DNA from: a virus
Lineage: Duplodnaviria; Heunggongvirae; Uroviricota; Caudoviricetes
Length of the DNA: 34,826 nucleotides
Direction: 5' to 3' (one strand)
Virus record (IMG/VR): IMGVR_UViG_2877251553_000002
Positions 5,174 to 34,826 of the stretch are shown piece by piece. Made by a program: the position numbers and the translations under genes. Below the pieces are notes generated by a model that was not told where the DNA came from, searched no databases, and saw only the letters and a list, made by a program, of their open reading frames with translations. Each line of letters starts with the position of its first letter. The first letter of the stretch is position 1.

Positions 5174-5471
5174 GCAAGCACCTTAAAATCACCATCATAC
5201 ACTAAATCAGTAAGTTGGCAGCATTACCCAGGAACTTCAATAACACTGGCGTTACGGGGTTCAATGCCTGTCACATCCTTACCGACCCACACCACGCGAC
5301 CGTCTCCGGTGTAAGTTATTTTAATTGTGTCGCTGGCGAAATTCTTCAGCTCTTCATACCAGTTTTTTCCGTCTTCCGAAAAAAGCCAGGTGACATCATA
5401 TTGTTTTGTCAGCTGATATTGTTCCACGGTTTTCGGATTGCCCGCAGTAATATTTTTTAAATGCAACATTG

Positions 5472-7625: not shown

Positions 7626-8488
7626 GCTTAGTCAGCCGTTGTCTCCGGATGTCGCGTGCGCAGTTGCACGTCATTCTCAGACGAACCGATGACTGGATGG
7701 ATGGCCGCCGCAGTCGTCACACTGATGATACGGATGTGCTTCTCCGTATACACCATGTTATCGGAGAGCTGCCCACGTATGGTTATCGTCGGGTATGGGC
7801 GCTGCTTCGCAGACAGGCAGAACTTGATGGTATGCCTGCGATCAATGCCAAACGTGTTTACCGGATCATGCGCCAGAATGCGCTGTTGCTTGAGCGAAAA
7901 CCTGCTGTACCGCCATCGAAACGGGCACATACAGGCAGAGTGGCCGTGAAAGAAAGCAATCAGCGATGGTGCTCTGACGGGTTCGAGTTCTGCTGTGATA
8001 ACGGAGAGAGACTGCGTGTCACGTTCGCGCTGGACTGCTGTGATCGTGAGGCACTGCACTGGGCGGTGACTACCGGCGGCTTCAACAGTGAAACAGTACA
8101 GGACGTCATGCTGGGAGCGGTGGAACGCCGCTTCGGCAACGATCTTCCGTCGTCTCCAGTGGAGTGGCTGACGGATAATGGTTCATGCTACCGGGCTAAT
8201 GAAACACGCCAGTTCGCCCGGATGTTGGGACTTGAACCGAAGAACACGGCGGTGCGGAGTCCGGAGAGTAACGGAATAGCAGAGAGCTTCGTGAAAACGA
8301 TAAAGCGTGACTACATCAGTATCATGCCCAAACCAGACGGGTTAACGGCAGCAAAGAACCTTGCAGAGGCGTTCGAGCATTATAACGAATGGCATCCGCA
8401 TAGTGCGCTGGGTTATCGCTCGCCACGGGAATATCTGCGGCAGCGGGCTTGTAATGGGTTAAGTGATAACAGATGTCTGGAAATATAG
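7583..8488 (+). CDS. insD: IS2 InsD (OrfB transposase)
   Basis: 301-aa [33 protein letters not shown]... characteristic of IS2. Confidence 0.85.
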
Positions 8489-11063: not shown

Positions 11064-11913
11064 TTTCTTCAGCCCTCATCATGGTACAGTTGGAACTCCA
11101 CGGACCGCCCACGGTTCGCGAAGTAATGGTGTGTATCACCCCTGTGATCGTATAATCGCCCGTCATATCAGGCAGTGACGATTCCAGATGCGCTGGCCTG
11201 CCAGTAAAGAGATCGGGGCAGAATATCGTGGTGGCGCTGAGTCCGGTCATGGTGTAAACCGGATAGCCAGTCAGTCCGTGATCCGGCGAAATCAGTACCG
11301 GCGGAATATTCCGGTTCTGCCCTTTCGGCCAGATGGTGACTTTCTCCACATTCCCCAGATCAATGTTAATATCGGCGGCTGAAGCGACATCCAGCATTTG
11401 TTGTACAACATTACCGGAAAAATGCGGGTCAGACAGACTGCGGCTGACCCCCTGGTTTTCAAATCCAAGCCCGACAGTTGACGCCAGCGCACGGATAATA
11501 TCTGCAACCGCAACATCGCCCTTTGCGCTGAAATCTGCCGCCGGCTGATTACGCAGATTAAAATGAATCTGTCCTGTCAGAATGAGCGGAATATCCGGCG
11601 CCTGGTTGTAGTCGGCGTATGCATCAGTAATATCACCTTCAAAAATAAGCCGCCCGTCGGCCCACAGCCGCATTTTATTTGCGGTACTCTGCTCCTGTCG
11701 CCACACACCGCGCCAGCTTAAATTCGTCATATGCGCCGGTGACATTCCCCAGATATACAGCGTGATTTGTGTACCAGCCACCCCTCCATATACGGCAATA
11801 CTGGCAAAACAGCTTGCGTCGGTAATGGTCAGCATATTGCCCTGGCCATTACCAAACGTTCGTCCGTCTGAAAGAGTGAACTCCACCGTTATTTTACGTT
11901 GTCTGTAGCTCAT
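11044..11913 (-). CDS. phage baseplate/tail protein (hub-like position)
   Basis: 289-aa ORF in tail-gene operon with overlapping start/stop to neighbours. Confidence 0.4.
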
Positions 11914-12212
11914 ATCAGTTCCTCAGGTAACAGCCAGTAGAGCCGGTACCGGGATCCGAGCCCCCGCCAGTCAGGGTCACTATTCCCCTCCGTGTCGGTA
12001 AAAAACAGATCCCCCTGAAACGGCAGGTATCCGTACCGGACAATCCGGTTATTATTCAGACACAGCACGCCATACAGGCACGGTTCACCATTAACAATGA
12101 TATCGATATACATCCCCGTAGTACGCTGATTCAGGCGAATGGTGCAGACCTGAGCGCCCAGTGTCACCGTAAACTGCTGGGCTTTAACGGGAGATAAAAC
12201 AATTTCCAGCAT
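11910..12212 (-). CDS. phage tail protein, hypothetical
   Basis: 100-aa ORF translationally coupled within tail operon. Confidence 0.35.
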
Positions 12213-12922
12213 CAGGTGATCCCCCTGTTCGTGGCGCTTCGTCTGTCAGCGTCTGACGGTTGTGTCTCCGACGCCGTAACTGGCTGCGTTTTAACCGATG
12301 CGGCCCCTTTTGCTTTATCGTTGTCCGTGGGAGACGACTTATCCGTACTTCCCACTGACACCTCTCCTGTATTCATTACGGTCTGAAATACCGCAGTAAC
12401 CGTCAGTAAGGTCGGACCATTATTACTTCGCATTCGGTAGTCATATTTCACAAGGTCGCAGGATGTCCATGTCTTGTCCGGCGTCTCAATATCGTAGAGT
12501 CCTGCCGTGGTACGCATCCTTTCAAGCGTTTCCAGCACATTCGTCCGCGAGGTGGTGGAAAAATTTGTCAGGTTCGGGACGGATCCGGAAAAGGCCGTCC
12601 ACCCCTCTACAGTGAAAGTCACATGCAGTTCCGGCGATCTCTGGATTTTATTAAAGGTGGTATAAGCCCCCTGCTCCACGGGGACGGTGGAAACAGAAGC
12701 CTCCGCGCCCACCTCAACGACAACAAAAGAATCCGGGGAGAAAGGTTTGCCACCCTTCTGATGGGCACCTGCCGGATCATTCCGTGCGTAATAAATACCG
12801 AATGACGGTGCCAGTACACTATTAATGAGTCCCAGGACACAGCCGCCACGAACTGCACTCAGTACGTTACTTTCACTGAGCGAAAAGTTATTCAGGGAAA
12901 TATTATCGAAAGAAAAACTCAT
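12212..12922 (-). CDS. phage tail protein, hypothetical
   Basis: 236-aa ORF immediately downstream of the tape measure gene. Confidence 0.35.
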
Positions 12923-14938
12923 CCTGTTACCCCGCTGGAATAAACCGACACAAGCGCCGAATTCGTGATACGCCGACGTGCGTCATCGGTAATACCCTTC
13001 ACATTGTCCGACGTTGTGGTGACATTCAGTGTCCCGATATGCGTGGTTTCCGTTACGGTGGACTGCGATACAGGCGCAGGATGGAGCGACCGTATGGCCA
13101 TTGCCGCACCCGGATAAGGCAGGTTCGCCAGCACCCGCGGAATATAGTTGCGGGTCTCCTCCGGAGCAGCAGCCAGTCCCTTACGCTGAACATTTCCCTC
13201 TCCACAGTTATATGCCGCCAGAGCCTTAGCCAGATCGCCATGAAAAAAACGTATCAGGCCACCAAGTTTTCTCGCGGCGGCATCAGCGGCTTTTTCGGGA
13301 TCAAAGGCATCGTTCCCCCTCAGACCAAATTCACTGGCCGTCTTCGGCATGAACTGAAACAGTCCCATCGCACCAGCAGGTGAGACGGCAAACTGATTAC
13401 CACGGGATTCGGTGATCGCAACGCTGCGCAGCAGTCCGGGCGGCAGGTTATATTTTTCCTCCAGTTGAGACAGTTTCGGTTGCAGCCAGCCTAACAGGGC
13501 TTCCCCGGTCTTCGTCGGTCGCTGGCGGTTTTGCATGGCATTACCGAGTTTTTCCTGCGTCGCACGCATACCCTGTAGCCAGGATTCACCGAAGGCTGCT
13601 TCCCTCCCGGTTGCCTGAGAAGCCTGAGTATCCAGCATGCCCTGCTGCCATACTGTGGGTGATTGTGCCCGGGTGATGTTGCCAGGCTTTTCTCCGGCAT
13701 CCAGTTTTGTCTGATACGTCTCCATCTCTTTCTTATTGAAAAAGAAAGTCCCGTCTGAAGCCCAGAAAAAACCATGTGAATCCAGCCAGTCCTTATTTTC
13801 CCTGCCAACAATGGATGTCAGTAATCCGTCAACAACCGGGTAAAGCGCCGTTATCGCAAAAAGAAGGCCTCCGGGGCCACTGAGGGCTTTTGTCAGCCCC
13901 CGCACCCATGACGCCACTTTCAGCCCGATCAGCGTAATAATGACATTCTGCCAGCCCCCAGTTCTCCGGCAGCCTTATTCGCTAGGGAGGCCACTGACTC
14001 AACGTCATTCAGAAATGTGGTGATAAACCTGTTCACTTCCTCCGGATGTTGCTGCATCCAGTCACCGAGTGTCTCCAGCCAGTGGCTGAGCTTCAGCGCG
14101 TACGGCATCAACGCGGTGCTAATCGTCATCCCGATGCCGGACCAGGTCTGATCGAGCTCAACAAGCTCTTTTCGTAGCTTACGGGCCAGCGCTGTACGCC
14201 CCGGCGTAACCTGCGAACGGGAAGTAAATTCGTCCACATCTTTCAGCGCATGACCGGAGCCAAGAAACTGCTGTCCGGCATAACTGAAGCCCAGCGCGTT
14301 GCCGTAGGCAGTTTGTTCGGACTTTGTCAGTCGCGGAAAAATAACCGCCAGCTTGCGCATGATGGCTTCAGTGCTGTCAGTATTTAAATCAACACTAATG
14401 CCCGCCCTGGCTGCAACCTGAAACAAATCCTGTAACACAGGATCAAAGGACCTTCCGGCTCTGAAGGCCGCTTTTGCATTTGCAAGCCGGGAAAATGCCC
14501 CAGACATTTCCCCTTCATCAACATTATTTGCCCGCGCAGCCCGTAACCATCCGTCCAGATTTCTGGCCTTCATGCCAAAAGCATCGGATTCCACGGACAG
14601 ACGGTTCAGATCACGGGCAAAACCTGTTACCAGGTTCTTCAGCCCCCCAGCGTCAGACTGACACCCGCAAGAGCCAGAATCTCGCTACGGATTCCTGAAA
14701 AAAAACGGGACGCCCGTTTCCCGGCATCTTCCATTCGACGGGCCGTTTTATCAGCATCTTTTCCGGTTTTTTCCAGTGATTCACTGGTTTTCTTCTGTCC
14801 CTGACTGAATGTGTCAGCGACACCTTCCATCACCGTCGTGAGCCGGTTAAGGGCAGCATGTACTGCCTGTTCCCCGGCAGTAAAGTCCCTGTCATCAATC
14901 CCGAGGGACAGAACAAGCTCATCAAGTACCTGCGCCAT
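12919..14938 (-). pseudogene. tail tape measure protein with C-terminal lytic transglycosylase (SLT) domain, split over three frames
   Basis: ORFs 14639-14938, 13929-14594 and 12919-13917 are consecutive in different frames; the last has an SLT-like signature (ESRGNQFAVSPAGAMGLFQFMP...AAYNCGEGNV). Confidence 0.55.
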
Positions 14939-15290
14939 TTCTGTTCTCCTGTATCACCTGTTCGTTATGGGCATCCACATGAATTATTTCCAGCAGATCC
15001 CATAAGTCCTGCACACCAAGGACAGAATCCAGTTCAGCTTTTGAAGCCTTACCGGAGGAGATAACGGTCGCAATGGTACGGGGAACATTAACGTAATCCA
15101 CCACCCCGAACGGTCTGTCGGGGTCGAGATAACGCGGGGGATATCTAGCTGACGACGGTAGCGAAAAAATCCACATGCAGCTTAAAGACCTCCGCACGCA
15201 GATTAAGACGGGTAATGATTTCTTCAATATCCTCTTCAACAAGCGGTCTCCGGATGCTGCGTTTTTTCGGATCGGGAACAAACTGCACAC
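14922..15290 (-). CDS. ORF overlapping the 3' end of the tail chaperone gene in the +1 frame (possible frameshift extension)
   Basis: Protein-like acidic sequence (...PFGVVDYVNVPRTIATVISSGKASKAELDSVLGVQDLWDLLEIIH...) spanning the chaperone-tape measure gap; no convincing own start signal. Confidence 0.3.
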   Translation of the reverse strand: MCSLFPIRKNAASGDRLLKRILKKSLPVLICVRRSLSCMWIFSLPSSARYPPRYLDPDRPFGVVDYVNVPRTIATVISSGKASKAELDSVLGVQDLWDLLEIIHVDAHNEQVIQENRNGAGT

Positions 15291-15549
15291 AGTCCATCAT
15301 TTCATCCATCAACGGACGCGCCTCATCAGGCGGAATTTTCGATAATGCTTTCAGCCCTTCAAGGGCAAGCGCAGCCATCCCCAGACTACGAACATCATCC
15401 GGTAACTCCACGCCACCACGCCCCATTGCCATAATGGCACGCATCGCCCACCATTCCGCCTGTGAGGCAGACATTTCGGTAAGATGAAATACCTTGCCCT
15501 TATCCCGTCCCTGACCTTCAATAGTGATAAATTTCTCTTTACGGGCCAT
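15145..15549 (-). CDS. tail assembly chaperone
   Basis: 134-aa helical acidic protein between tube and tape measure genes, the conserved chaperone position; ends with a T-rich heptamer (GAT TTT TTC). Confidence 0.5.
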   Translation of the reverse strand: MARKEKFITIEGQGRDKGKVFHLTEMSASQAEWWAMRAIMAMGRGGVELPDDVRSLGMAALALEGLKALSKIPPDEARPLMDEMMDCVQFVPDPKKRSIRRPLVEEDIEEIITRLNLRAEVFKLHVDFFATVVS

Positions 15550-15887
15550 CAGTTAAAAACCTCCGGAGTAATGGTTTCCCACTCAATAACCGCCTGCCCT
15601 GGCTGCAACGTACGAGCTGCATCAGGCAGCGCTTTCCATTGTTTGAGTACGCCATTCACGCAGGTATATTTACGGCCAATCGCCGGAAGCAGGACGACAG
15701 CGTTACAACGGAATACAGCCCGACTGGCCCGGATGTGGTTGACCAGGTATCAAAAATATCCCGGCTGGGGGAATCCGGCATGATATGAAACGTCTGGATA
15801 ATGTTGCTGTACACAAATCCCGCGGACAGTTTGGTAATGCTGCCAACTTACTGATTTAGTGTATGATGGTGATTTTAAGGTGCTTGC

Positions 15888-16163
15888 GTGGCTTCCATTT
15901 CCATCAGATGTCCTTCCTGCTCCGCTACTGAAGGCGTGGTGCGTAACGGCAAAAGCACTGCCGGACATCAGCGCTATCTCTGCTCTCATTGCCGTAAAAC
16001 ATGGCAACTACAGTTCACTTACACCGCCTCTCAGCCCGGTACGCACCAGAAAATCATTGATATGGCCATGAATGGCGTCGGATGTCGCGCCAGTGCACGC
16101 ATTATGGGCGTTGACCTCAACACGGTTTTCCGTCACTTAAAAAACTCAGGCCGCAGTCGGTAA
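15888..16163 (+). CDS. insA: IS1 InsA
   Basis: 91-aa ORF, two substitutions relative to the copy at 4898-5173. Confidence 0.85.
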
Positions 16164-16189
16164 CCTCGCGCATACAACCGGGCAGTGAT

Positions 16190-16585
16190 GTGATTGTCTG
16201 CGCTGAAATGGACGAACAGTGGGGCTACGTCGGTGCTAAATCACGTCAGCGCTGGCTGTTTTACGCGTATGACAGGATACGGAGGACGGTTGTGGCGCAC
16301 GTCTTCGGTGAACGCACTCTGGCCACACTGGAGCGTCTTCTGAGCCTGCTGTCGGCCTTTGAGGTCGTGGTATGGATGACGGATGGCTGGCCGCTGTATG
16401 AATCACGCCTGAAGGGAAAGCTGCACGTTATCAGCAAGCGTTACACTCAGCGCATTGAGCGACATAATCTGAATCTGAGACAACATCTGGCAAGGCTGGG
16501 ACGGAAGTCACTGTCGTTCTCAAAATCGGTGGAGCTGCATGACAAGGTCATCGGGCATTATCTGAACATAAAACACTATCAGTAA
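16190..16585 (+). CDS. insB: IS1 InsB (N-terminal region carries a TGG to TGA change relative to copy 1)
   Basis: 131-aa ORF matching the C-terminal 131 aa of InsB; the upstream in-frame segment has a stop at codon 11. Confidence 0.7.
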
Positions 16586-17949
16586 GTTGGAGTCATTACC
16601 GACAGTTTACCGTCAATACCGCGGGCAGTTTCCGCCAGTACCAGTGGATCGGTGCCATAAACGTTATCTGTTGCAAATCCCTGAAGTCGTACGCCGGAGG
16701 GATACAGATTATTCACTGTCAGCGTGATAATGGCATCCGCCGCAGTGATGGTGTTGTTGTTACCCGACATTTACTGGACCTCCGTGGATGCAATAACAAG
16801 TTTCTGGATACTACCGCCGTCACAGTACCAGAGCGTACAGGACGGACTGCTACGGGTTGCCCGCAAAGAGGGAAGCATATCGCCGATATACAGGTAATAG
16901 CCGGTGGCAAACAACGTTGAAGAAACATCTGCCTCCACAACATTGTTAATCTGTTTCTTCTGCGCCTCCGTCAGTGTCACCCCTTCACGGATCCCTCCCC
17001 AGCGTTTGTACTGCTGGATAACGTCACTCATTGACGCTGCAACCAGCGCCCGCCCTTCATTGTTGTAGGGGACCGTCTGGTTTGACTTGAATAATGCGAT
17101 CACCGCCCCTGCAAACTGGCATTCAGCCAGATTTGCCCGCAGAAACTGTCCAGCCATTTAAAATCACCGGTAATAGTGCCATCCGCCCAGTAATCTTCCA
17201 CCACACTGTTTTCCGCATATTTTCCGTAGAAATTGTAACCTGCGGCGATCAGCGCATCATAATCGCTGCCACTGGTAACATCAGCGGCCAGCCCCTCATA
17301 CTCGCGGAACTTGAATGATACACGCCCCTCTGGTCGGATAAAATCAAGGCACGCTGCATACCCCAGTACCGCTGCAGCCCGGTTACCATCAGTCGCGAAA
17401 ACAGGTACAACAGAGCTGTAGTTATTGACAGCAATTATCTGGTAAGCGATGTGTTCAGTACTGCCTTTTACTCTGGCGTTGCCGCTGGTTGTCCATGCCA
17501 CATAAAAGTAACGCTTGCCCTGCCCGTTTGCCCATGCAGAAAACGCCAGGTGTTGCTCGTCAGTGACCTCAGATACCGTGGAAAAACCCGCCCATTGCTG
17601 GGAAGCGGCCTTAATGGCTGCCATTGTGTCAGGGACATCAGATACAGGCGCGCCCCGGGATATCACCGCACCGGTGTTACTGGTCATCTTCAGGAGTTCT
17701 GCTGCCGATCCACTGCCGAACGTTATCGTGGTACTCCCGGGTTTCGCCCCGGCGACAGTAATGACAAAAGCATTCTGTGTGGTATCGAATACCACTGTAG
17801 CCACTGCTGCGGTCAGCGCTGTCTGTAGTGCCGTTGCAGCAGCGGCGAAGCTGGCGACACCGTTAAAATTCACTTCAATGCTGACGCTTTTCCCGTTAAT
17901 ACTCAGCATCAGCGTAAGCGTGCAGCAAGAACCGTATTGACGGGATGTG

Positions 17950-19487
17950 TTATTCAGTCGGCAGTGCTACGCGCCAGGGGAGCAGTTCGCCGACCCGGTT
18001 TATCGGCCAGTCGGCTATGACGTCAAGTACATAGCGGAGGTAGCTTTCTGGCTCCACTCCGTTCAGTTTGCACGTCCCGATCAGGCTGTACAGCAGCGCT
18101 CCCCGCTCTCCTCCATGATCCGAACCGAAGAACAGGTAGTTTTTGCGGCCCAGACTGACCATCCGCAACGCATTTTCAGCGATGTTATTGTCCGCCTCAG
18201 CCCAGCCATCATCTGCATAGTACGTCAGCGCCGGCCACTGGTTCAGGGCGTATGCGAACGCTTTCGCCAGTTCTGAGTGTCGCGACAGGGTTTTCATCTT
18301 TTCACGCAGCCAGCTTTCCAGGGATTTCAGCAGCGGTTTCGTTTTCAACTGACGTTCGGCAAGGCGCTGCTCCGCCGTCATTCCCCTTATCTCTGCCTCG
18401 ATGGCGTACAGTTCGCCGATCCGTTTCAGCGCTTCCTCCGTCAGGGCTGACGGGGTGCGAACGTGCACATCGTGGATTTTACGGCGGGCGTGAGCCCAAC
18501 AGGCGGCTTCCGTTATCCGGCCATCCCGGTACAGCTCGTTGAACCCGGCGTATGCATCCGCCTGCAGTACACCACTGAACCCCGCAAGATGGGTCTGCGG
18601 ATGGATGCCTTTTCTGTCCGGGCTGTAAGCGAACCACACCGCCGGCGCCAGCGTTGACCCGGCGTTACGGTCGTCACGAACGTAGGTCCATAACCGCCCG
18701 GTCTTCGTTTTCTTATTGCCTGGCAACAGCACCGGGACAGGCGTGTCATCGCATGGAGCTTACCGTCAGTCAGCACATAGTCCTGAAGCGCTTCTTCCAG
18801 CGGTGACAGTAGCCGGCAGCATGCATCCACCCAGCCCGACAGCAGTGAACGACTCAGCTCCACGCCCTGGCGGCCGTACATTTCAGACTGGCGGTACAGC
18901 GGGGTGTGCTCTGCATACTTTGAGATCAGCACGCGGGCCAGCAGCCCCGGTCCTGCGATACCCCGCTCGATGGGCCGTGAAGGCGCGGGGGCCTGCACGA
19001 TGGCATTGCACTGAGTACAGGCATGCTTTTCACGTACAGTCCGGATAACCCGGAAGACGCTGCGCATCAACTCCAGCTGTTCGGCGGCATCCTCACCCGG
19101 ATAGCTCAGTGAGCCTCCACATTCCGGGCAGCATGACGCTGCCGGCAGCAGCCGTTTTTCATCGCGGGGGAGTGATTCGGGGAACGGTTTGCGGGTGCGG
19201 GTTTGACGCAGCGGGCGCTGCACGGCCGGGTCGTCAACCCGACCGGTAAGGGTATCACTTTCTTTCTGAAGTGCCTTCAGGTCAGCTTCCATCTGTGCGA
19301 TACGACGGGAGACTTTTTCGGAGCGGCTGCCGAAGTTCATCCGGCGCAGCTTATCCAGCTGTGCCTGCAGATGGTCTATTTCGCGTTCACGCTCGTTCAG
19401 CTTTTCCAGCAGGGCACGGTTCAGCGCCTCCTGTTCGGCAAGGAGACGTTTCAGTGCATTGATATCGTCAGGAAGTGAGCTGCTCAT
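17950..19487 (-). pseudogene. IS66-family transposase TnpC, frameshifted
   Basis: ORFs 18513-19487 and 17950-18732 match the intact copy-3 TnpC; 1-bp deletion near 18750 (GTCATCGCATGG versus GTCATCAGCATGG). Confidence 0.8.
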
Positions 19488-19535
19488 ACCGGGTATATTA
19501 CCAGGCTCATTCAGCGTCGACCAGGATAAAGAGGC

Positions 19536-19883
19536 TTACAACATAGTCAGGGACGTAAGCAGTCTTTTAGGCTGCCGCCAGTCGATACCTTCAAGGAGCA
19601 TCGCCAGCTGTGCCGGTGTGAGGAACACTTTGCCATCCCGGGCTGACGGCCAGGCGAAGCGGCCGCGCTCCAGCCGTTTGGTCAGCAGACACAGTCCATC
19701 GCCGGTAGACCAGAGGAGCTTTACCTGACTGCCATTACGCCCACGGAAGATAAAAACGTGACCTGACATCGGAGCGTCTTTCAGCGTCGTCTGCACCTTT
19801 GCCGCCAGGCCGTTGAAGCCATTTCTCATATCGGTGATACCGGCAACCAGCCAAATTTTGGTCCCGGAAGGTAACGGGATCAT
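19536..19883 (-). CDS. IS66-family TnpB (orf2)
   Basis: 115-aa ORF, one substitution relative to the other copies. Confidence 0.85.
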   Translation of the reverse strand: MIPLPSGTKIWLVAGITDMRNGFNGLAAKVQTTLKDAPMSGHVFIFRGRNGSQVKLLWSTGDGLCLLTKRLERGRFAWPSARDGKVFLTPAQLAMLLEGIDWRQPKRLLTSLTML

Positions 19884-20281
19884 CGCTTCAGTTCCTGTAT
19901 CAGCAGAGTCAGGAGCTTTTCGCTGACATTGCCATTGAAGCGGAGCGTCCCGTGCCGGAACGTTACCTCACAGCTGATACTGAGGGTTTCCGGATCCTCT
20001 GCGAGCGATTCTGGCTGTTCGGCAGCTGCATCGAGAGTCACAGGAAGTAGCTGGGGGCTCTCTGAAGAAGGTAATAGCAGCTTTCCCTCGCGCCATTGTT
20101 GTCGCCATTTGAACAACAGATTGGCGTTAATGCCATTTTCAAGAGCAAGTTTTGAGATGGATATCCCGGGTTCACAGGAGGCAGCAACGAGCTGCTGTTT
20201 AAATTCGGGAGGATAATTAGGGCAGCCTTTTCGCCTGCCGGGATTCACATTTTTCTGCATATCTGACACTTTGGTTCCCAC
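19880..20281 (-). CDS. IS66-family TnpA (orf1)
   Basis: 133-aa ORF MGTKVSDMQKNV...; true start may be the internal Met at 20260. Confidence 0.8.
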   Translation of the reverse strand: MGTKVSDMQKNVNPGRRKGCPNYPPEFKQQLVAASCEPGISISKLALENGINANLLFKWRQQWREGKLLLPSSESPQLLPVTLDAAAEQPESLAEDPETLSISCEVTFRHGTLRFNGNVSEKLLTLLIQELKR

Positions 20282-20681
20282 TACTTATTTGGTGGACACC
20301 ACTTTGTCTAATTCGTCAGATTCTGACCAGACGGTTCAGGCTGTACGCTTACGCATCAGCGTGCCGGAAAGTTTTTGTAGCTGTTCAACAGTCGCGCCCT
20401 TAAACGAACCGCTACGTAACCAGGCCGCCGATGGGGCAGGACTGAAACGGGAAAACAACAATTGCCCCGGCGTCCTGGTGGCATTTTTGAAGCCCTGGAA
20501 ATAAAGCTGAGCGCGTGCGTACTCATCGGATAATGCACCAAAATACGCGGCCACATCATCCGGAGAGGAAAACGGAACCACAGTGCCGACCGGAAGTAAC
20601 GGATTACTGGTCAACAGCAGGCCGTTAAGATCGACGGCATTACCCGCCACAGCCAGCACACCGGGATTTATCTGTACATCT

Positions 20682-22609: not shown

Positions 22610-23677
<1,068 letters not shown>

Positions 23678-24194: not shown

Positions 24195-24269
<75 letters not shown>

Positions 24270-24272
24270 ATA

Positions 24273-24348
<76 letters not shown>

Positions 24349-24350
24349 GC

Positions 24351-24427
24351 TGGCCCACCACCGAGGACTCGAACCTCGCACCGTCAACTTAGAAGGTTGA
24401 TGCTCTATCCGGATGAGCTAGTGGTGG
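24351..24427 (-). tRNA. tRNA-Arg (anticodon UCU)
   Basis: Reverse complement CCACCACTAGCTCATCCGGATAGAGCATCAACCTTCTAAGTTGACGGTGCGAGGTTCGAGTCCTCGGTGGTGGGCCA; 7-bp acceptor stem, anticodon loop CTTCTAA. Confidence 0.75.
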
Positions 24428-24428
24428 T

Positions 24429-24505
24429 TGGTGGCCCTTGCTGGACTTGAACCAGCGACCTGGCGATTATGAGTCGCTCGCTCTGACCAACTGAGCTAAA
24501 GGGCC
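24429..24505 (-). tRNA. tRNA with CAU anticodon (tRNA-Ile2-like, or Met)
   Basis: Reverse complement GGCCCTTTAGCTCAGTTGGTCAGAGCGAGCGACTCATAATCGCCAGGTCGCTGGTTCAAGTCCAGCAAGGGCCACCA; resembles ileX-type tRNA. Confidence 0.8.
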
Positions 24506-24585: not shown

Positions 24586-25886
<1,301 letters not shown>

Positions 25887-26224
25887 CTGATAAAAGCGCC
25901 CTGTACTGGTTAGCAATAGCAAATTTACTACCAGCTGCTCTGATTTCAAGAAAGCTGTACACCTCCCTTATGCCTATATTTTTAACCGGAACACCACCAA
26001 AGTATTCACTTATGATTTTCAACCTCTGGTTGTGTCTTTTCATGGTGTTTGTGCTTAATTGTCTACGCTCTATTTCATTTCTGAAATTTAATATCAGCTC
26101 GCAGAATAATGTTACGCTATTACCTTTTATTCTATCCAGTAAGCTTATATGTTGCGTGGATAATAATTCCATATTTGCCGCAATAGCCTCATTAACTGCA
26201 ATTCTTTTGTCTCTTCCGATTCCA
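25887..26224 (-). pseudogene. lambda-family integrase, internal N-proximal fragment
   Basis: Reads ...GIGRDKRIAVNEAIAANMELL...NSVTL...AIANQYRALLS up to the IS911 junction, colinear with lambda Int residues ~36-160; 5' end replaced by an IS1 terminus at 26225. Confidence 0.8.
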
Positions 26225-26352
26225 GGTGATGACTCCAACTTACTGATAGTGTTTTATGTTCAGATAATGCCCGATGACCTTGTCATGCAGCTCCACCGAT
26301 TTTGAGAACGACAGTGACTTCCGTCCCAGCCTTGCCAGATGTTGTCTCAGAG
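26225..26352 (-). mobile_element. IS1 terminal fragment (~128 bp)
   Basis: GGTGATGACTCCAACTTACTGATAGTGTTTTATGTTCAGATAATGCCCGATGAC... matches the IS1 end at 4461-4590, then is cut by the ISEc8-like terminus at 26353. Confidence 0.8.
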
Positions 26353-26388
26353 TAAGCGTGCAGCAAGAACCGTATTGACGGGGATGTG

Positions 26389-27927
26389 TTATTCAGTCGG
26401 CAGTGCTACGCGCCAGGGGAGCAGTTCGCCGACCCGGTTTATCGGCCAGTCGGCTATGACGTCAAGTACATAGCGGAGGTAGCTTTCTGGCTCCACTCCG
26501 TTCAGTTTGCACGTCCCGATCAGGCTGTACAGCAGCGCTCCCCGCTCTCCTCCATGATCCGAACCGAAGAACAGGTAGTTTTTGCGGCCCAGACTGACCA
26601 TCCGCAACGCATTTTCAGCGATGTTATTGTCCGCCTCAGCCCAGCCATCATCTGCATAGTACGTCAGCGCCGGCCACTGGTTCAGGGCGTATGCGAACGC
26701 TTTCGCCAGTTCTGAGTGTCGCGACAGGGTTTTCATCTTTTCACGCAGCCAGCTTTCCAGGGATTTCAGCAGCGGTTTCGTTTTCAACTGACGTTCGGCA
26801 AGGCGCTGCTCCGCCGTCATTCCCCTTATCTCTGCCTCGATGGCGTACAGTTCGCCGATCCGTTTCAGCGCTTCCTCCGTCAGGGCTGACGGGGTGCGAA
26901 CGTGCACATCGTGGATTTTACGGCGGGCGTGAGCCCAACAGGCGGCTTCCGTTATCCGGCCATCCCGGTACAGCTCGTTGAACCCGGCGTATGCATCCGC
27001 CTGCAGTACACCACTGAACCCCGCAAGATGGGTCTGCGGATGGATGCCTTTTCTGTCCGGGCTGTAAGCGAACCACACCGCCGGCGCCAGCGTTGACCCG
27101 GCGTTACGGTCGTCACGAACGTAGGTCCATAACCGCCCGGTCTTCGTTTTCTTATTGCCTGGCAACAGCACCGGGACAGGCGTGTCATCAGCATGGAGCT
27201 TACCGTCAGTCAGCACATAGTCCTGAAGCGCTTCTTCCAGCGGTGACAGTAGCCGGCAGCATGCATCCACCCAGCCCGACAGCAGTGAACGACTCAGCTC
27301 CACGCCCTGGCGGCCGTACATTTCAGACTGGCGGTACAGCGGGGTGTGCTCTGCATACTTTGAGATCAGCACGCGGGCCAGCAGCCCCGGTCCTGCGATA
27401 CCCCGCTCGATGGGCCGTGAAGGCGCGGGGGCCTGCACGATGGCATCGCACTGAGTACAGGCATGCTTTTCACGTACAGTCCGGATAACCCGGAAGACGC
27501 TGCGCATCAACTCCAGCTGTTCGGCGGCATCCTCACCCGGATAGCTCAGTGAGCCTCCACATTCCGGGCAGCATGACGCTGCCGGCAGCAGCCGTTTTTC
27601 ATCGCGGGGGAGTGATTCGGGGAACGGTTTGCGGGTGCGGGTTTGACGCAGCGGGCGCTGCACGGCCGGGTCGTCAACCCGACCGGTAAGGGTATCACTT
27701 TCTTTCTGAAGTGCCTTCAGGTCAGCTTCCATCTGTGCGATACGACGGGAGACTTTTTCGGAGCGGCTGCCGAAGTTCATCCGGCGCAGCTTATCCAGCT
27801 GTGCCTGCAGATGGTCTATTTCGCGTTCACGCTCGTTCAGCTTTTCCAGCAGGGCACGGTTCAGCGCCTCCTGTTCGGCAAGGAGACGTTTCAGTGCATT
27901 GATATCGTCAGGAAGTGAGCTGCTCAT
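26389..27927 (-). CDS. IS66-family transposase TnpC, intact (512 aa)
   Basis: Single uninterrupted ORF; the only intact TnpC among the three copies. Confidence 0.85.
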
Positions 27928-27975
27928 ACCGGGTATATTACCAGGCTCATTCAGCGTCGACCAGGATAAAGAGGC

Positions 27976-28323
27976 TTACAACATAGTCAGGGACGTAAGC
28001 AGTCTTTTAGGCTGCCGCCAGTCGATACCTTCAAGGAGCATCGCCAGCTGTGCCGGTGTGAGGAACACTTTGCCATCCCGGGCTGACGGCCAGGCGAAGC
28101 GGCCGCGCTCCAGCCGTTTGGTCAGCAGACACAGTCCATCGCCGGTAGACCAGAGGAGCTTTACCTGACTGCCATTACGCCCACGGAAGATAAAAACGTG
28201 ACCTGACATCGGATCGTCTTTCAGCGTCGTCTGCACCTTTGCCGCCAGGCCGTTGAAGCCATTTCTCATATCGGTGATACCGGCAACCAGCCAAATTTTG
28301 GTCCCGGAAGGTAACGGGATCAT
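27976..28323 (-). CDS. IS66-family TnpB (orf2)
   Basis: 115-aa ORF identical to copy 1. Confidence 0.85.
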   Translation of the reverse strand: MIPLPSGTKIWLVAGITDMRNGFNGLAAKVQTTLKDDPMSGHVFIFRGRNGSQVKLLWSTGDGLCLLTKRLERGRFAWPSARDGKVFLTPAQLAMLLEGIDWRQPKRLLTSLTML

Positions 28324-28721
28324 CGCTTCAGTTCCTGTATCAGCAGAGTCAGGAGCTTTTCGCTGACATTGCCATTGAAGCGGAGCGTCCCGTGCCGGAA
28401 CGTTACCTCACAGCTGATACTGAGGGTTTCCGGATCCTCTGCGAGCGATTCTGGCTGTTCGGCAGCTGCATCGAGAGTCACAGGAAGTAGCTGGGGGCTA
28501 TCTGAAGAAGGTAATAGCAGCTTTCCCTCGCGCCATTGTTGTCGCCATTTGAACAACAGATTGGCGTTAATGCCATTTTCAAGAGCAAGTTTTGAGATGG
28601 ATATCCCGGGTTCACAGGAGGCAGCAACGAGCTGCTGTTTAAATTCGGGAGGATAATTAGGGCAGCCTTTTCGCCTGCCGGGATTCACATTTTTCTGCAT
28701 ATCTGACACTTTGGTTCCCAC
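28320..28721 (-). CDS. IS66-family TnpA (orf1)
   Basis: 133-aa ORF; alternative start at 28700. Confidence 0.8.
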   Translation of the reverse strand: MGTKVSDMQKNVNPGRRKGCPNYPPEFKQQLVAASCEPGISISKLALENGINANLLFKWRQQWREGKLLLPSSDSPQLLPVTLDAAAEQPESLAEDPETLSISCEVTFRHGTLRFNGNVSEKLLTLLIQELKR

Positions 28722-28818
28722 TACTTATTTGGTGGACACCACTTTGTCTAATTCGTCAGATTCTGACCAGACGGTTCAGGCTGTACGCTTACGTTTTTAT
28801 AATCCGGCCATGACATTT

Positions 28819-29178
28819 TTACAACATTGTCAGTGCGTTAAGGCGGGATGTTTTTGGCTGACGCCAGTCCAGCTTATCGAGGAGCATTGCCAGTTGCGAG
28901 CGGGTAATGGATACCTTGCCGTCACGCACAGCAGGCCAGATAAACTGGCCTTCCTCCAGGCGTCTGGTGAACAGGCACAGACCATCAGCATCAGCCCACA
29001 GGATTTTAATCATGTCACCCCGTCGGCCACGGAAGATGAACAGGTGACCGGAGAAGGGATTATCATTCAGCACATGCTGTACCTGTTCACCCAGCCCGTT
29101 GAAAGACTTACGCATATCGGTTATCCCAGCAACGAGCCAGATGCGGGTGCCTGACGGGAGTGAGATCATCGTCCCCAC
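28819..29178 (-). CDS. IS66-family TnpB-like protein (divergent)
   Basis: MGTMISLPSGTRIWLVAGITDMRKSFNGL..., roughly 60 percent identical by eye to the ISEc8-like TnpB. Confidence 0.75.
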   Translation of the reverse strand: MGTMISLPSGTRIWLVAGITDMRKSFNGLGEQVQHVLNDNPFSGHLFIFRGRRGDMIKILWADADGLCLFTRRLEEGQFIWPAVRDGKVSITRSQLAMLLDKLDWRQPKTSRLNALTML

Positions 29179-29597
29179 CCGGTCAGTTCACGGATCAACA
29201 CTGTGAGCAGCTCTGGTGAAGGATTTTCCAGCGTCATGTTACCGTGACGGAACTCCACCTTGCAGGAGCTGGCACTAACTGTAGTCTGAGTAGATAAAGA
29301 CGGAGTAAGAGCAGCCACCGGTTCTTTCGGCTCATCCGGCGTTATCTCCACAGGTAATAATTCAACGCCAGTGTCAGAAGAGGTTGTTACCGGAAGACGC
29401 CGCGATATGCGCCCTTCGTTCTGCCAGAGCCTGAGCCATTTGAACAGCAGGTTATCATTGATATCGTGTTCCCGGGCAATACGGGCAACAGAGGCTCCTG
29501 GTTGTGAAGCCAGTTTAACCATTTGAAGTTTAAACTCATTTGAAAATGATCTGCGGGTTCTGCAGATAATGCTTTCTGTTCCATAACAGGTGTCCAC
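29166..29597 (-). CDS. IS66-family TnpA-like protein (divergent); start uncertain
   Basis: Contains the conserved ...DNLLFKWLRLWQNEG... segment of IS66 orf1 proteins. Confidence 0.65.
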   Translation of the reverse strand: MDTCYGTESIICRTRRSFSNEFKLQMVKLASQPGASVARIAREHDINDNLLFKWLRLWQNEGRISRRLPVTTSSDTGVELLPVEITPDEPKEPVAALTPSLSTQTTVSASSCKVEFRHGNMTLENPSPELLTVLIRELTGWGR

Positions 29598-29670
29598 TAG
29601 TTGAAAAGGTGGGCACCTACGTTACCAATACAGGCTTAATGGCTACATACGGCGGTCAGTTTACGCTTAC

Positions 29671-29944
29671 CAAAATACGCTGTTGCTTTTTTTAATATAT
29701 ATCGCTCAAGGCGAGCTTCATTTAACGCCTTACGCAGTTGCAGAATTTCAGATTCCAGTTCAGCCACCGTGCGGGAACCAGGAGTACCGAGCCCTTTTCT
29801 GGCGGCGGTAACCCATTGTCCTAAAGTGCCTTCAGGAAGGGATAATCGGGAAGCGCCTTCACTGATCGAAAGTTGATTTTCAAGAACCGTTCTGACAGCT
29901 TCGGCTTTGAACTCTTTAGAGTAACGTTGGTTTTTTCTGCTCAT
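29671..29944 (-). pseudogene. IS3-family OrfA, 3' truncated
   Basis: First ~91 codons of an IS600-like OrfA; ORF tail at 29636-29670 is IS66-derived. Confidence 0.6.
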
Positions 29945-30008
29945 TATTAGCTCCTTCTGATGCCATTCTATTTCAGGAAGGAGTGTCCGTTAAACTCAGG
30001 CTACCTCA
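29671..30008 (-). mobile_element. IS3-family element 5' fragment (IS600-like)
   Basis: Left end TGAGGTAGCCTGAGTTTAACGGACAC (as reverse complement at 29983-30008) and OrfA N-terminus MSRKNQRYSKEFKAEAVRTVLENQLSISEGASRL..., cut at 29670 by the IS66-family terminus. Confidence 0.6.
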
Positions 30009-30067
30009 GCCTGAGGGCAGGTGTAAAACAATAATCAAGCATGGGGTTCATATCCATAGCTCCATTT

Positions 30068-30613
30068 TTATTTTAAGGAAAGCAACTGCTCTACGGTCAT
30101 GTTTTTAATTGCGCCCCGGTTTACAAGAGTCCAGCCCTGTTTTTCCAGATAAAACCGGAAAGTCTCCAGGGTACAGACCAGTGCGCCATCAGGAACGGTT
30201 TCGGTGAATTCGACATTGCCGAATTTGTCGAAGTGAACAACCAGAGTGCGACCATCACCCGGAATCATCTTGTCAGCAGGTGGGGTGTTATTCTGGCGCA
30301 GTTCGGCCTCCATGCGGTCGAACTCAGCAATGTAGGCTTCCTTGAATGTGGCGGCTTTTTTGCCCGTGAAGCCCATCACCAGGAAAACGAAGCCGTTTTT
30401 GGTGATTTGGTAGGCGTTATAAGAATTGCCGCGGTGTTCGAATTTAACCCGCGAAAAGTTGCTGGTTAAAAATAGTTCAGAACATTCGAGGGATTCTATT
30501 TTTTGAACAACATGGTGATGCTGCTTGCCAAAAAACTCAGCAATCGAAATAGAAGTAGTGACGGCGCGACCATTTTCGATGGTTACGTCAGGGTGAGAAA
30601 GGGTAGTAGCCAT
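30068..30613 (-). CDS. rha: phage regulatory protein Rha (antirepressor-like)
   Basis: Start ATG at 30613 with GAGGA 7 nt upstream; Rha-family signature ...SISIAEFFGKQHHHVVQKIESL...YQITKNGFVFLVMGFTGKKAATFKEAYIAEFDRMEAEL... Confidence 0.75.
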   Translation of the reverse strand: MATTLSHPDVTIENGRAVTTSISIAEFFGKQHHHVVQKIESLECSELFLTSNFSRVKFEHRGNSYNAYQITKNGFVFLVMGFTGKKAATFKEAYIAEFDRMEAELRQNNTPPADKMIPGDGRTLVVHFDKFGNVEFTETVPDGALVCTLETFRFYLEKQGWTLVNRGAIKNMTVEQLLSLK

Positions 30614-30695
30614 AATGACATCCTCAAGTGATAAGTTAATTAACTCACCAGCAGAGGTGCTAATCTCATGGGTGGTGAGACGCACAGGGTTAGCA

Positions 30696-30908
30696 CTACC
30701 GGTCACTCGAGAACCCGGCCAGCCTTGCGGCTGCCCCGCACGCCTCACCATAATTTGAATGTGGCTGTGCATTACGCATAAAAAAAACCGCTTCAGCGCG
30801 GTTATGCGCTCGAGTAACTTTCGGGGTGCTAATCCCGGCGCCCGTTTTATGAGGTGCAGGTGCATTATAATTCCACCCGTTCTGGTTTTCAATAGCTACA
30901 TTCAACAT
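30696..30908 (-). CDS. hypothetical 70-aa ORF with good ribosome site but an intrinsic terminator inside it
   Basis: AGGAAAGAG upstream of ATG at 30908; hairpin plus T8 at 30780-30803 lies mid-ORF, so coding status is doubtful. Confidence 0.2.
   Translation of the reverse strand: MLNVAIENQNGWNYNAPAPHKTGAGISTPKVTRAHNRAEAVFFMRNAQPHSNYGEACGAAARLAGFSSDR
30780..30803 (-). terminator. rho-independent terminator, minus strand, upstream of rha
   Basis: ACCGC-GCTGAA-GCGGT hairpin followed by 8 T on the minus strand, embedded in a longer palindrome CGCATAA...TTATGCG. Confidence 0.5.
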
Positions 30909-31682: not shown

Positions 31683-32089
31683 TTATTTGTTTGCGCTTCT
31701 TTTGCGAGCTTTGAGTAGTTCTTCAAAAAGTTTGTTGAAATTTTCAACTCGAGCACGCATCTCTGACAACAGGGCCTTTTGCTCTGACTCAGGCAGTGCG
31801 TCGAACAGTTGAAGTAACTCTTTTTGATCTTCTGTCAGAATGGCTGGCTGATTATCCGGGATCGGTTCGCCTGGTTGTTTATCTTCATCCCAAAAAGAAG
31901 CCAAGTCGGTGAGCACTGAAGCGCTTGGCTCAGTGCGAATAATCTTTTCCCCGCCGGCTGTGTTTCATCTCTTTCCCATTGAGAAATTGTTACGTGAGCC
32001 ACTTTGACCAGCTTACCTAATGCGGCCTGAGACAGTTTTAATTTTTTACGCCTATGTAAGAGGCGAGCACCGAAGGTTTCGTTTTTCAT
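31683..32089 (-). pseudogene. dicA: DicA-like HTH (XRE/cI-type) repressor, frameshifted
   Basis: ORFs 31835-32089 (HTH: ...LSQAALGKLVKVAHVTISQWERDETQPAGKRLFALSQALQCSPTWLLFG) and 31683-31916 (...LPESEQKALLSEMRARVENFNKLFEELLKARKR) overlap in different frames and together resemble DicA. Confidence 0.7.
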
Positions 32090-32165: not shown

Positions 32166-32373
32166 ATGTTGAAAATTGATGCTATAGCGTTTTTTGGCAG
32201 CAAAACAAAGCATTGCCAATGCCGCAGGAGTTAGGCTGGCAAGCATTGCTGCATGGGGGGAACTGGTTCCTGAAGGTCGCGCGATGCGCCTGCAAGAGGC
32301 ATCTGGCGGGGAACTTCAGTACGACCCAAAGTTTATGACGAATATCGTAAGGCAAAACGACCTGGGAAGGTGA
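32166..32373 (+). pseudogene. dicC: DicC-like Cro-type regulator, frameshifted
   Basis: MLKIDAIAFFGSKTK then a 1-bp insertion; the other frame continues IANAAGVRLASIAAWGELVPEGRAMRLQEASGGELQYDPK..., resembling DicC. Confidence 0.65.
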
Positions 32374-32376
32374 TTC

Positions 32377-32798
32377 ATGAAAATCAGGCATGAGCACATC
32401 GAATCAGTGCTGTTAGCCCTGGCAGCCGAAAAAGGGCAGGCGTGGGTCGCTAACGCAATTACTGAAGAATATCTGCGGCAGGGGGCGGCGAATTGCCTCT
32501 GGTACCAGGCAAGGACTGGAACAATCAGCAGAATATCTATCACCGTTGGTTGAAAGGTGAAACGAAAGCGCAAAGGGAAAAAATTCAGAAACTGATCCCT
32601 GCGGTTCTGGCAATTCTTCCGCGTGAGCTGCGTCACCGACTCTGTATCTTCGATACCCTGGAACGCCGTGCATTACTGGCGGCGCAGGAAGCGTTGAGTA
32701 CGGCAATTGATGCGCATGATGACGCAGTTCAGGCCGTTTACCGGAAAGCACATTTCAGCGGTGGTGGGTCGTCCGACGATTCTGTCGTTGTGCATTGA
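32377..32798 (+). pseudogene. YdaT-like protein, frameshifted
   Basis: MKIRHEHIESVLLALAAEKGQAWVANAITEEYLRQG.. then a frame change into ..LPLVPGKDWNNQQNIYHRWLKGETKAQREKIQKLIPAVLAILPRELRHRLCIFDTLERRALLAAQEAL... Confidence 0.65.
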
Positions 32799-32888
32799 TG
32801 TTTATGCCGAACCTCCTCTGGTTCTGTTGATTGGGGAATCACAGATTATATCCGGAGGAAGGTTCGGCACCAGACGAGGTTTCTATAT

Positions 32889-32970
32889 ATGAGCATGAAA
32901 CTAATGGCAAAAGCAATGGAAATTAAAGTGGGTAATCCATTGCGTAAGCTGGTTCTGATTAAGCTGGCTG
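32889..32970 (+). pseudogene. 5' fragment of a gene cut by IS911 (possibly replication-initiator O-like)
   Basis: MSMKLMAKAMEIKVGNPLRKLVLIKLA runs directly into the IS911 left end at 32971. Confidence 0.3.
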
Positions 32971-33042
32971 TGAAGTGGCACACTGAATTTGGCCACCTGA
33001 ACAGAGGTGATATGCTCACCTCAGAACAACACAGGTGCTCCA

Positions 33043-34826
<1,784 letters not shown>

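Follow-up and report, generated by a model that had tools for sequence, protein, structure and literature searches.

Nested insertion sequences and a 5-kb deletion probably account for an IS pile in a decayed lambda-like Shigella prophage

The insertion sequence (IS) DNA at positions 26225-30008 of the window, by which we mean the whole 34,826-bp stretch of DNA analysed here, is with high probability the outcome of nested insertions followed by a 5-kb deletion, leaving a non-functional scar within a decayed lambda-like prophage next to ybhA in the Shigella chromosome. Over 14.8 kb the window matches a sequence deposited at NCBI (CP026825.1, our locus L012) at 100% identity, and the same arrangement is found in three further related loci (L005, L007 and L009). 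Comparison of the pile with related genomes gave the order of the insertions and the extent of the deletion, the most informative loci being L004, L006, L011 and L013, which was the way of ordering the events proposed in the initial annotation of this DNA.

Composition of the pile

The pile is made up of four abutting IS pieces, namely an IS1 end, a complete IS66-family element, a partial IS66-family element and the start of an IS600, and their identities of 99-100% to full-length copies rule out a chance origin. The leftmost piece (26225-26351, minus strand) aligns with the 3′-terminal 127 bp of IS1, positions 642-768 of 768, and carries the right inverted repeat with its adjoining sequence, and IS1 is thus represented as a fragment only. 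Identity of this fragment is 100% to the IS1 found at the same site in L011, 99.3-99.6% to the two full-length IS1 copies that the window has in other places, and 93.7% to IS1A. One copy of the target repeat of the neighboring element, GTCTCAGA, lies inside it at 26344-26351.

That neighbor is a complete IS66-family element of 2,441 bp and of the ISEc22 type (26352-28792, minus strand), with its right tip at 26352 and its left tip at 28792. It has the family order tnpA-tnpB-tnpC, with tnpC at 26389-27927, tnpB at 27976-28323 and tnpA at 28320-28721 (all minus strand), the last two overlapping by 4 bp, and encodes a TnpB of 115 aa and a DDE transposase TnpC of 512 aa. NCBIfam models score 97 bits (IS66 TnpA), 120 bits (IS66_TnpB) and 465 bits (transpos_IS66). 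Both tips read GTAAGCG, and the terminal inverted repeats, imperfect in their match (GTAAGCGTGCAGC at 26352 and the reverse complement of GTAAGCGTACAGC ending at 28792), are likewise those of the IS66 family. An IS1 end cut by an intact IS66-family copy had been described from the sequence alone, and all four pieces lie within a base or two of the coordinates then stated. The name then used, “ISEc8-like,” is acceptable at the level of the family but not as ISEc8, since identity to the annotated ISEc8 of EHEC (E. coli O121:H19, CFSAN004176) is 88.5%, while RefSeq copies named “ISEc22 family” (E. coli B7A and others) match over the full length at 99.7%. By the usual naming convention, copies of one IS share at least ~90-95% nucleotide identity with the reference, and in annotation the element is better called ISEc22 than ISEc8. 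The matches of the pile in O121:H19 and CFSAN004176 (87-89% identity) lie in other islands and proved to be clusters of ISEc8, IS66 and IS600 unrelated to it. With both ends and three intact genes, the ISEc22 copy is likely the only part of the pile that could be active today.

The tnpC of this copy is also the only intact IS66-family transposase gene in the window, as had been claimed, and this is true as the sequence reads: the IS66-family copies at 1-2348 and 17914-20352 each have a 1-bp deletion in tnpC. One of these deletions falls within a CCCC run, where it might be an error of long-read assembly. The related assemblies appear to be long-read based (PacBio is documented only for L009, CP026832, S. 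dysenteriae 14 ATCC 49346), so that single-base frameshifts, such as those of the “broken” tnpC genes, may include sequencing errors.

A second, unnamed IS66-family element follows at 28793-29670 (minus strand), whose nearest named relative is the “ISEc43 family” at 93%. It comprises the 5′ 878 bp, including the left inverted repeat, and is 99.8% identical to positions 1-880 of a full copy in L011. The full copy measures ~2.5 kb; here tnpC and the right end are deleted, and the initial annotation was right in crediting this different, abutting element with its first two genes only, tnpA at 29166-29597 and tnpB at 28819-29178 (minus strand). The sequence stops 26 bp past the tnpB stop codon and, with L011 as the reference, 4-5 bp short of the tnpC start. 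The deletion endpoint is at 28792/28793, with one base (G) ambiguous.

The last piece (29671-30008, minus strand) is the 5′ 338 bp of the 1,264-bp IS600, a member of the IS3 family, and is 99.4% identical to full IS600 copies. It has the left inverted repeat TGAGGTAGCC and an orfA cut at about codon 91, and had already been recognized as a truncated IS600-like OrfA; nothing of the orfB part remains in the window. The orfA fragment reads on into a 102-aa chimeric ORF at 29636-29944. This ORF and that at 25795-26238, both “hypothetical,” are junction chimeras, and the recorded sources of junction-spanning ORFs are Shigella only. Next to the IS600 piece lie the first ~49 bp of the phage gene ydaE (30009-30057, minus strand), the original IS600 target, for which L004 provides the empty site.

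Order of the insertions and the 5-kb deletion

No matching repeats flank any pile element within the window, as had been noted for its junctions, and the ISEc22 copy stands between GTCTCAGA and GTTTTTAT, which do not match. Its sister copy at 17914-20352 is flanked on either side by GCTGATGC, as in a normal insertion. The reference for the history of the pile is L011 (CP026828.1), which matches the window at 34826-28792 and again at 26351-22958, with 5.0 kb between the two in place of ISEc22.

Comparison with these relatives shows that IS600 inserted first, at the 5′ end of ydaE, and that its 3-bp repeat is GGC. The site is uninterrupted in L004 (CCCTCAGGCAGACC), GGC stands on both sides of the split IS600 in L011, and GCC at 30009-30011 is one copy in the window. 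The ~2.5-kb second IS66-family element then entered IS600 orfA, a step likewise shown by the relatives: judged against intact IS600, the element has the 8-bp repeat GTATTTTG in L011, where the rest of IS600 (936 bp) comes after it. We infer that IS1 came next, with the DNA that follows ydaE on one side of it and int from about codon 36 on the other. At the pile site L011 has the whole 768-bp IS1 (a 769-bp alignment), containing TCTGAGAC once, and no 9-bp target repeat was found around it. Since IS1 is without a target repeat even in L011, the 5′ end of int, xis and the recombination genes were probably lost at IS1, and this loss of early-left genes would predate the deletion described below.

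ISEc22 followed by inserting into IS1 at position 641-649. Its 8-bp repeat TCTGAGAC, absent as a duplication in the window itself, is established by reconstruction from the relatives: it is the left flank of ISEc22 in L006 and L013, where the junction reads IS1(1-649)-TCTGAGAC and then ISEc22, it is the right flank in the window, and it occurs once in L011. The last step was a single deletion of 5,012 bp, the extent of which is given by comparison with L011, with one end exactly at the left tip of ISEc22 and the other in the second IS66-family element, 26 bp past tnpB. The missing segment holds the tnpC of the second element, an IS110-family element, the 3′ part of IS600, the 3′ part of ydaE and the 5′ part of IS1; only 279 bp of it, the 3′ end of ydaE, is phage DNA, and the remainder is IS DNA. 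One deletion thus leaves three junctions in the window without matching repeats, and the ISEc22 copy lacks its left-hand target repeat because the deletion removed it. As one ISEc22 copy bridges both junctions, the 5-kb segment was deleted and not inverted in place. Of the earlier proposal of successive insertions followed by IS-adjacent deletions of phage early genes, the nested insertions and a trim anchored at an IS end hold, but not the removal of early genes by what is, at the pile, one deletion with 279 bp of phage DNA. An intermediate with two ISEc22 copies flanking the 5 kb, or with ISEc22 in a complete IS1 with both flanks, was found in no genome, and the ancestor has therefore been rebuilt from two half-junctions held in different strains.

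How the deletion formed can be read in two ways. We lean, with about even confidence, to the insertion of a second ISEc22 into the second IS66-family element, where its site would be ATAAAAAC, after which the two copies, in direct orientation, would have recombined homologously. Such exchange between ISEc22 copies can be seen directly in the lineage: in L010 the 3′ side of the pile copy is flanked by GATTTTGCCAGC, the sequence that flanks the ISEc22 copy at 1-2348 in the window. This observation tells against intramolecular transposition by ISEc22, an adjacent deletion in which the left end in IS1 attacks the second IS66-family element 5 kb off and no second copy ever exists, and which we hold as a tentative reading, rather doubtful though worth weighing. 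It has in its favor that it needs one event fewer, that the deletion endpoint agrees with the left tip of ISEc22 to the base, and that none of the related chromosomes shows a second ISEc22 copy or the reciprocal junction. The latter, joining the right tip of ISEc22 to the tnpC start of the second element, had no match in species-representative genomes or metagenomes, in which Shigella is scarce. Sixteen ISEc22 copies compared with each other have 13 variable sites with gene-conversion-like patterns, which do not discriminate between the two mechanisms. To our knowledge, the chemistry and pathway of IS66-family transposition have not been worked out, and a literature search on IS66 and adjacent deletion returned, as far as titles and abstracts tell, only plasmid-sequencing work and nothing on the topic. 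If the deletion was the work of ISEc22 itself, through intramolecular strand transfer, the pile would be natural evidence for one-ended adjacent deletions by the IS66 family.

The junction of the two IS66-family elements might also be taken for a mobile composite unit, with the left end of the second element and the right end of ISEc22, or for a misassembly of repeats; the two elements do share a terminal GTAAGCGT motif and lie head to tail. We give this next to no credence. In Shigella assemblies the junction is always at one locus and beside the same IS600 fragment, the 3.3-kb unit has no flanking 8-bp repeat, and the junctions are shared by at least six independent assemblies (L005, L007, L009, L010, L012 and L014). 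The junction had no match in a scan of species-representative genomes, and neither the whole pile nor its junctions were present in the complete E. coli genomes searched. That the pieces are neither full-length elements with normal duplications throughout nor a known composite was thus rightly anticipated, given the element alignments, the missing flanking duplication and the single locus. Nested insertions trimmed by one deletion, by either of the two routes, remain our preferred account.

Prophage setting and the IS911 inversion

The initial annotation had placed the pile where replication and Q genes would be expected. That it replaced these genes through several IS-adjacent deletions at its junctions has in its favor that, in the window, the pile does have the immunity region (rha, cI, cro) on one side and the tRNA/holin late region on the other, and that the window indeed lacks replication, nin and Q genes. 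This reading is nevertheless very improbable. In the undisturbed E. coli relative FDAARGOS_943 (L015) the order is ybhA-int-recE′-ydaE-rha-cI and, from there on, cro-ydaT-replication-nin, and E. coli O121 strain 201805972 agrees, with replication genes beyond ydaT and with recE and int beyond ydaE. On the right of the pile, rha (30068-30907, minus strand; TIGR02681 phage_pRha, annotated Rha in L004 and L015) is the first phage gene left intact; its transcription runs leftward, toward the pile, and that of cro and ydaT runs away from the pile. Downstream of cro and ydaT an 82-bp replication-gene stub (about 32889-32970, plus strand) is cut by an IS911 copy: in alignment, window 32371-32970 is 97.7% identical to L004 11995-12595 and reaches 82 bp into the L004 gene 12514-13269, which precedes a replicative helicase. 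Judged from these alignments, the stub is the former site of the replication genes; the immunity region separates it from the pile, which occupies the early-left int/xis/recombination arm, with ydaE/rha on one side and int on the other. The gap left by the replication-to-Q block is at two inverted IS911 copies that lie outside the pile; the deletion within the pile took only the 279 bp of phage DNA, and the adjacency to the late region is a product of the inversion that split int.

The first IS911 copy (24639-25886, minus strand; termini TGAAGTGG...CCACTTCA) is full length, 99.6% identical to an annotated IS911 in L004 and recognized by NCBIfam as an IS3-family transposase; its right end (24639) adjoins DNA upstream of the tRNA genes and its left end (25886) an N-terminal fragment of integrase. 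The second (32971-34218, plus strand), also full length, inverted with respect to the first and 99.8% identical to it, adjoins the replication-gene stub on its left and a C-terminal integrase fragment on its right. By alignment to lambda Int, the N-terminal fragment (25887-26224, minus strand) covers about residues 36-148 and is interrupted by IS1 on its upstream side and by IS911 on its downstream side, with CTG at 25887-25889 as one copy of the IS911 target repeat; the C-terminal fragment (34219-34826, plus strand) holds the catalytic domain and starts with the CAG target repeat. Joined minus one CAG, the halves are in frame, colinear with lambda Int residues 36-352 (E 1e-66) and gap-free at the junction, as for a lambda-type tyrosine integrase, and they are contiguous in FDAARGOS_943 with CAG once. 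Being split and without about 35 N-terminal codons, int is a pseudogene. IS911 inserted into int with the repeat CAG, and recombination with a second, inverted IS911 flipped an 8-kb segment containing the pile and the immunity region, putting the pile beside the tRNA/holin late region. This inversion may have come before or after the events inside the pile.

The late side is marked by a prophage tRNA cluster found by ARAGORN (24195-24505, minus strand), with tRNAs for Gly-UCC, Thr-UGU and Arg-UCU and one with a CAU anticodon, annotated Ile in RefSeq, just upstream of the holin gene. E. coli FDAARGOS_944 has the cluster annotated as well and, upstream of it, ORF6N, a DUF1133 protein and nin genes (DUF1364, DUF1367); homology to that genome ends at the IS911 junction at 24639. 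Beyond the end of the window, in related loci, ybhA and modCBA follow the C-terminal integrase fragment, and the ybhA/mod genes adjoin the equivalent integrase ORF (PF00589) in L005-L014.

Comparison with known systems

The pile serves as a worked example of how IS elements without target repeats can result from ordinary insertions with normal duplications and then one deletion, and of how an IS911 inversion can mislead the reading of a prophage map, as gene order alone pointed to the wrong missing genes. Beyond such bookkeeping its significance is small, with no evident bearing on phage biology or virulence.

In its genes the prophage resembles the IS-interrupted, defective lambdoid prophages known from E. 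coli K-12 and Shigella, with a lambda-type Int, a Rha/DUF1391/cI/cro/YdaT module and tRNAs upstream of the holin gene, and a RecE-type early-left arm, as in Rac-like prophages of the ydaE/ydaT/rha type, is present in its relatives. It differs from them in that only a split int, a 3-kb immunity block, the tRNAs and the holin gene are left, in an order scrambled by the IS911-bounded inversion. The ISEc22 copy has the three genes and both inverted repeats of the ISEc22/ISEc8 group (tnpA-tnpB-tnpC, GTAAGCG termini, 8-bp repeats). In Shigella genomes IS1, IS2, IS4, IS600, IS911 and “ISEc8” have expanded, and ISs have mediated deletions and rearrangements there (Hawkey et al., 2020, PMC7373316). The pile is a typical case of this already known genome decay, with the same elements, host group and outcomes (nesting, repeat-less copies, deletions, inversions between copies) and no difference in kind, but here the history of a single locus has been traced base by base through sister genomes.

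Four abutting IS elements

The pile of insertion sequences at 26225-30008, located in a decayed lambda-like Shigella prophage beside ybhA, was mapped by reading the sequence and aligning it to full-length copies from annotated genomes, and it consists of four abutting pieces, all on the minus strand. It opens with the last 127 bp of IS1 (26225-26351; positions 642-768, right inverted repeat included), followed by a complete IS66-family element of 2,441 bp (26352-28792) with GTAAGCG at both tips and the genes tnpA, tnpB (115 aa), and tnpC (512 aa), these calls being backed by NCBIfam profile matches. Next come the first 878 bp of a second, different IS66-family element (28793-29670; left inverted repeat, tnpA, and tnpB plus 26 bp) and the first 338 bp of IS600 (29671-30008; left inverted repeat and an orfA cut near codon 91). 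The alignments and gene calls bear out the coordinates and description of the pile in the initial annotation, although the name "ISEc8-like" proved inexact, the intact element sharing 99.7% identity from end to end with RefSeq "ISEc22 family" copies and only 88.5% with EHEC ISEc8. Two further ISEc22 copies in the window (1-2348 and 17914-20352) each carry a 1-bp deletion in tnpC, so that the pile does hold, as the sequence reads, the only intact IS66-family transposase in the window. One of these deletions falls within a CCCC run and may be a sequencing error, since at least one related assembly is documented as PacBio. Judged from its sequence, the ISEc22 copy in the pile is probably still mobile; the IS1, second IS66, and IS600 pieces are dead fragments.

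Position of the pile and the IS911 inversion

To the right of the pile lie rha, DUF1391, and the cI-like repressor gene on the minus strand, then cro and ydaT on the plus strand. Past ydaT, DNA homology to E. coli O121 strain 201805972 covers the first 82 bp of the gene before its replicative helicase and is cut by IS911 at 32970/32971, which places the replication genes on the right-hand side, not the side of the pile. In E. coli FDAARGOS_943 a prophage of this type occupies the same site on the chromosome, with its gene order undisturbed: ybhA - int - (IS600, recE', IS600, IS1) - ydaE - rha - DUF1391 - cI / cro - ydaT - replication genes - hok - nin. By this gene order the pile is assigned to the early-left arm, the place of int, xis, and the recombination genes. 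The initial annotation had set it where replication and Q genes would be expected, a claim that fails on both the replication stub and the FDAARGOS_943 order; its observation is otherwise confirmed, and its interpretation is supported in part.

An inversion alone makes the pile seem to stand between the immunity genes and the late genes. A lambda-type integrase gene is split into an N-terminal part immediately left of the IS1 end (25887-26224) and a C-terminal part forming the last 608 bp of the window (34219-34826). Each fragment adjoins one of two mutually inverted IS911 copies (copy 1, 24639-25886; copy 2, 32971-34218) and bears the same 3-bp repeat CAG, and in FDAARGOS_943 the halves are contiguous with CAG present once. 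When joined, they are in frame and match residues 36-352 of lambda Int colinearly (E 1e-66). Since the integrase halves are oppositely oriented, as are the two IS911 copies, we infer that an inversion between these copies flipped an 8-kb segment in which both the immunity region and the pile lie. With the inversion undone, the genes fall into the usual lambdoid order, int ... ydaE-rha-cI-cro-ydaT-(IS911)-tRNAs-holin. It is at this second IS911, between ydaT and the tRNAs and lacking a target repeat, that the replication-nin-Q block is missing, and not at the pile. Homology to FDAARGOS_944 upstream of the tRNAs ends exactly at IS911 copy 1, and beyond this breakpoint FDAARGOS_944 carries ORF6N, a DUF1133 protein, and nin genes.

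Order of insertions and origin of the 5,012-bp deletion

Because sister Shigella chromosomes differ at this locus, the events at the pile can be ordered. CP026828.1 (L011) matches the window on either side of ISEc22, in whose place stand 5.0 kb comprising the remainder of the second IS66 element (tnpC, 530 aa), an IS110-family element within the right inverted repeat of the latter, the missing 936 bp of IS600, the remainder of ydaE, and a full-length IS1. In this chromosome IS600 has GGC on both flanks, and E. coli O121 strain 201805972 has the empty site CCCTCAGGCAGACC; the second IS66 element has GTATTTTG on both flanks, which occurs once in intact IS600. No 9-bp repeat was found at the flanks of IS1, which has DNA from downstream of ydaE immediately on one side and int, from about codon 36, on the other. 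Two other loci (L006 and L013) have the L011 structure plus ISEc22 within IS1, with ...GAATCTGAGAC adjoining GTAAGCG. The ISEc22/IS1 junction of the window reads CGCTTAC followed by TCTGAGACAACATC, and the uninterrupted IS1 site in L011 is GAATCTGAGACAACATC, with the 8-mer present once. Together, these two flanks and the single 8-mer indicate that the entry of ISEc22 into IS1 produced the normal 8-bp duplication, TCTGAGAC, and that the two sides of this insertion are now preserved in different strains.

Compared with the reconstructed ancestor, the window has a single 5,012-bp deletion (L006 coordinates 11154-16165), with one end at the left tip of ISEc22 and the other inside the second IS66 element, 26 bp past its tnpB stop codon and 4-5 bp short of where tnpC begins, joining GGATTATAAAAAC to the ISEc22 left tip. 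Only 279 bp of the removed 5 kb are phage DNA. This single deletion took the far side of three insertions, which explains why no element of the pile has matching repeats in the window, and since its endpoint is an IS tip to the base, the deletion was IS-mediated.

As to how it arose, we lean slightly to a route, given about an even chance, in which a second, directly oriented ISEc22 copy would have inserted at ...ATAAAAAC and then undergone homologous recombination with the first. Both steps are demonstrably active here, because ISEc22 inserts with repeats (the copy at 17914-20352, which lies in the sheath gene, has GCTGATGC) and its copies swap flanks (in CP026819.1, L010, the pile ISEc22 carries GATTTTGCCAGC, the flank of the window copy at 1-2348). 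Intramolecular transposition by the ISEc22 copy already in IS1 would require one event fewer, but it rests on behavior that we did not find documented for the IS66 family, a literature search judged on titles and abstracts having returned no IS66-family adjacent deletions, and we regard it as possible but rather doubtful. SNPs among the ISEc22 copies fit both routes alike, and scans for the reciprocal junction (ISEc22 right tip joined to ATAAAAACGGCCATGAATC) found no match among species-representative genomes and metagenomes, collections in which Shigella is scarce.

Surrounding rearrangements and distribution

The IS110-family element (~1.5 kb; L011:12779-14295 and L014:11158-12678, 99% identical) occurs in related loci and is absent from the window. 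It sits 5 bp from the tip (after GTAAG) of two different IS66-family inverted repeats, one being that of the right end of the second IS66 element (L011, L006, and L013) and the other that of the left end of ISEc22 (L014), a placement suggestive of site-specific targeting of the ends of IS66-family elements. RefSeq labels such a gene beside an IS66 element "IS110 family RNA-guided transposase."

The left two-thirds of the window (1-23000) is an E217-like myovirus tail/baseplate module, including a tail fibre N-terminal domain, a gp41-like baseplate hub, an SLT transglycosylase, and a DUF3383 sheath. Several IS elements interrupt this module: two full IS1 copies (4461-5229 and 15833-16600), an IS3-family element near 7215-8488, and the two frameshifted ISEc22 copies, of which that at 1-2348 is inverted relative to the pile copy. 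In CP026819.1 the pile ISEc22 has the right-hand flank of the 1-2348 copy (L010:13555-13634 against window 2349-2360), which implies a ~26-kb inversion between those two copies in that strain. A 720-bp partial IS911 (22958-23677; positions 2-720) links the lambdoid holin gene directly to this tail module, which comes from a different prophage (DUF3383 sheath, DUF4054, tail terminator), and the lysozyme and remaining lysis cassette are gone. Upstream of the holin gene are four prophage tRNA genes (24195-24505; Gly-UCC, Thr-UGU, Arg-UCU, and one with a CAU anticodon); the last is called Met by ARAGORN and Ile by RefSeq, and from the RefSeq label it is probably an AUA-reading isoleucine tRNA. The cI-like repressor gene (31683-32089) consists of two overlapping ORFs (77 and 84 aa) in the window and CP026825.1, whereas most sister genomes have one ORF of 135 aa; the split reflects either a mutational frameshift or an error in long-read assembly.

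By exact-sequence look-up, the 102-aa ORF across the IS600/IS66 junction was found on 18 contigs, 12 of which belong to chromosome-scale assemblies. Every source name given for this ORF, or for the one across the IS1/int/IS911 junctions, is Shigella (S. dysenteriae, S. boydii, "MULTISPECIES Shigella"). CP026825.1, which is among these contigs, matches the window at 100% identity over 14.8 kb, and CP026832, another related locus, belongs to S. dysenteriae 14 ATCC 49346 (PMC10132075). The pile and each of its junctions were absent from all complete E. coli genomes, searched for both. The pile is a scar, and nothing suggests a function. IS-driven decay of Shigella genomes through nested insertions, repeat-less IS copies, deletions, and inversions is well described (PMC7373316), and the pile is an instance of this decay.
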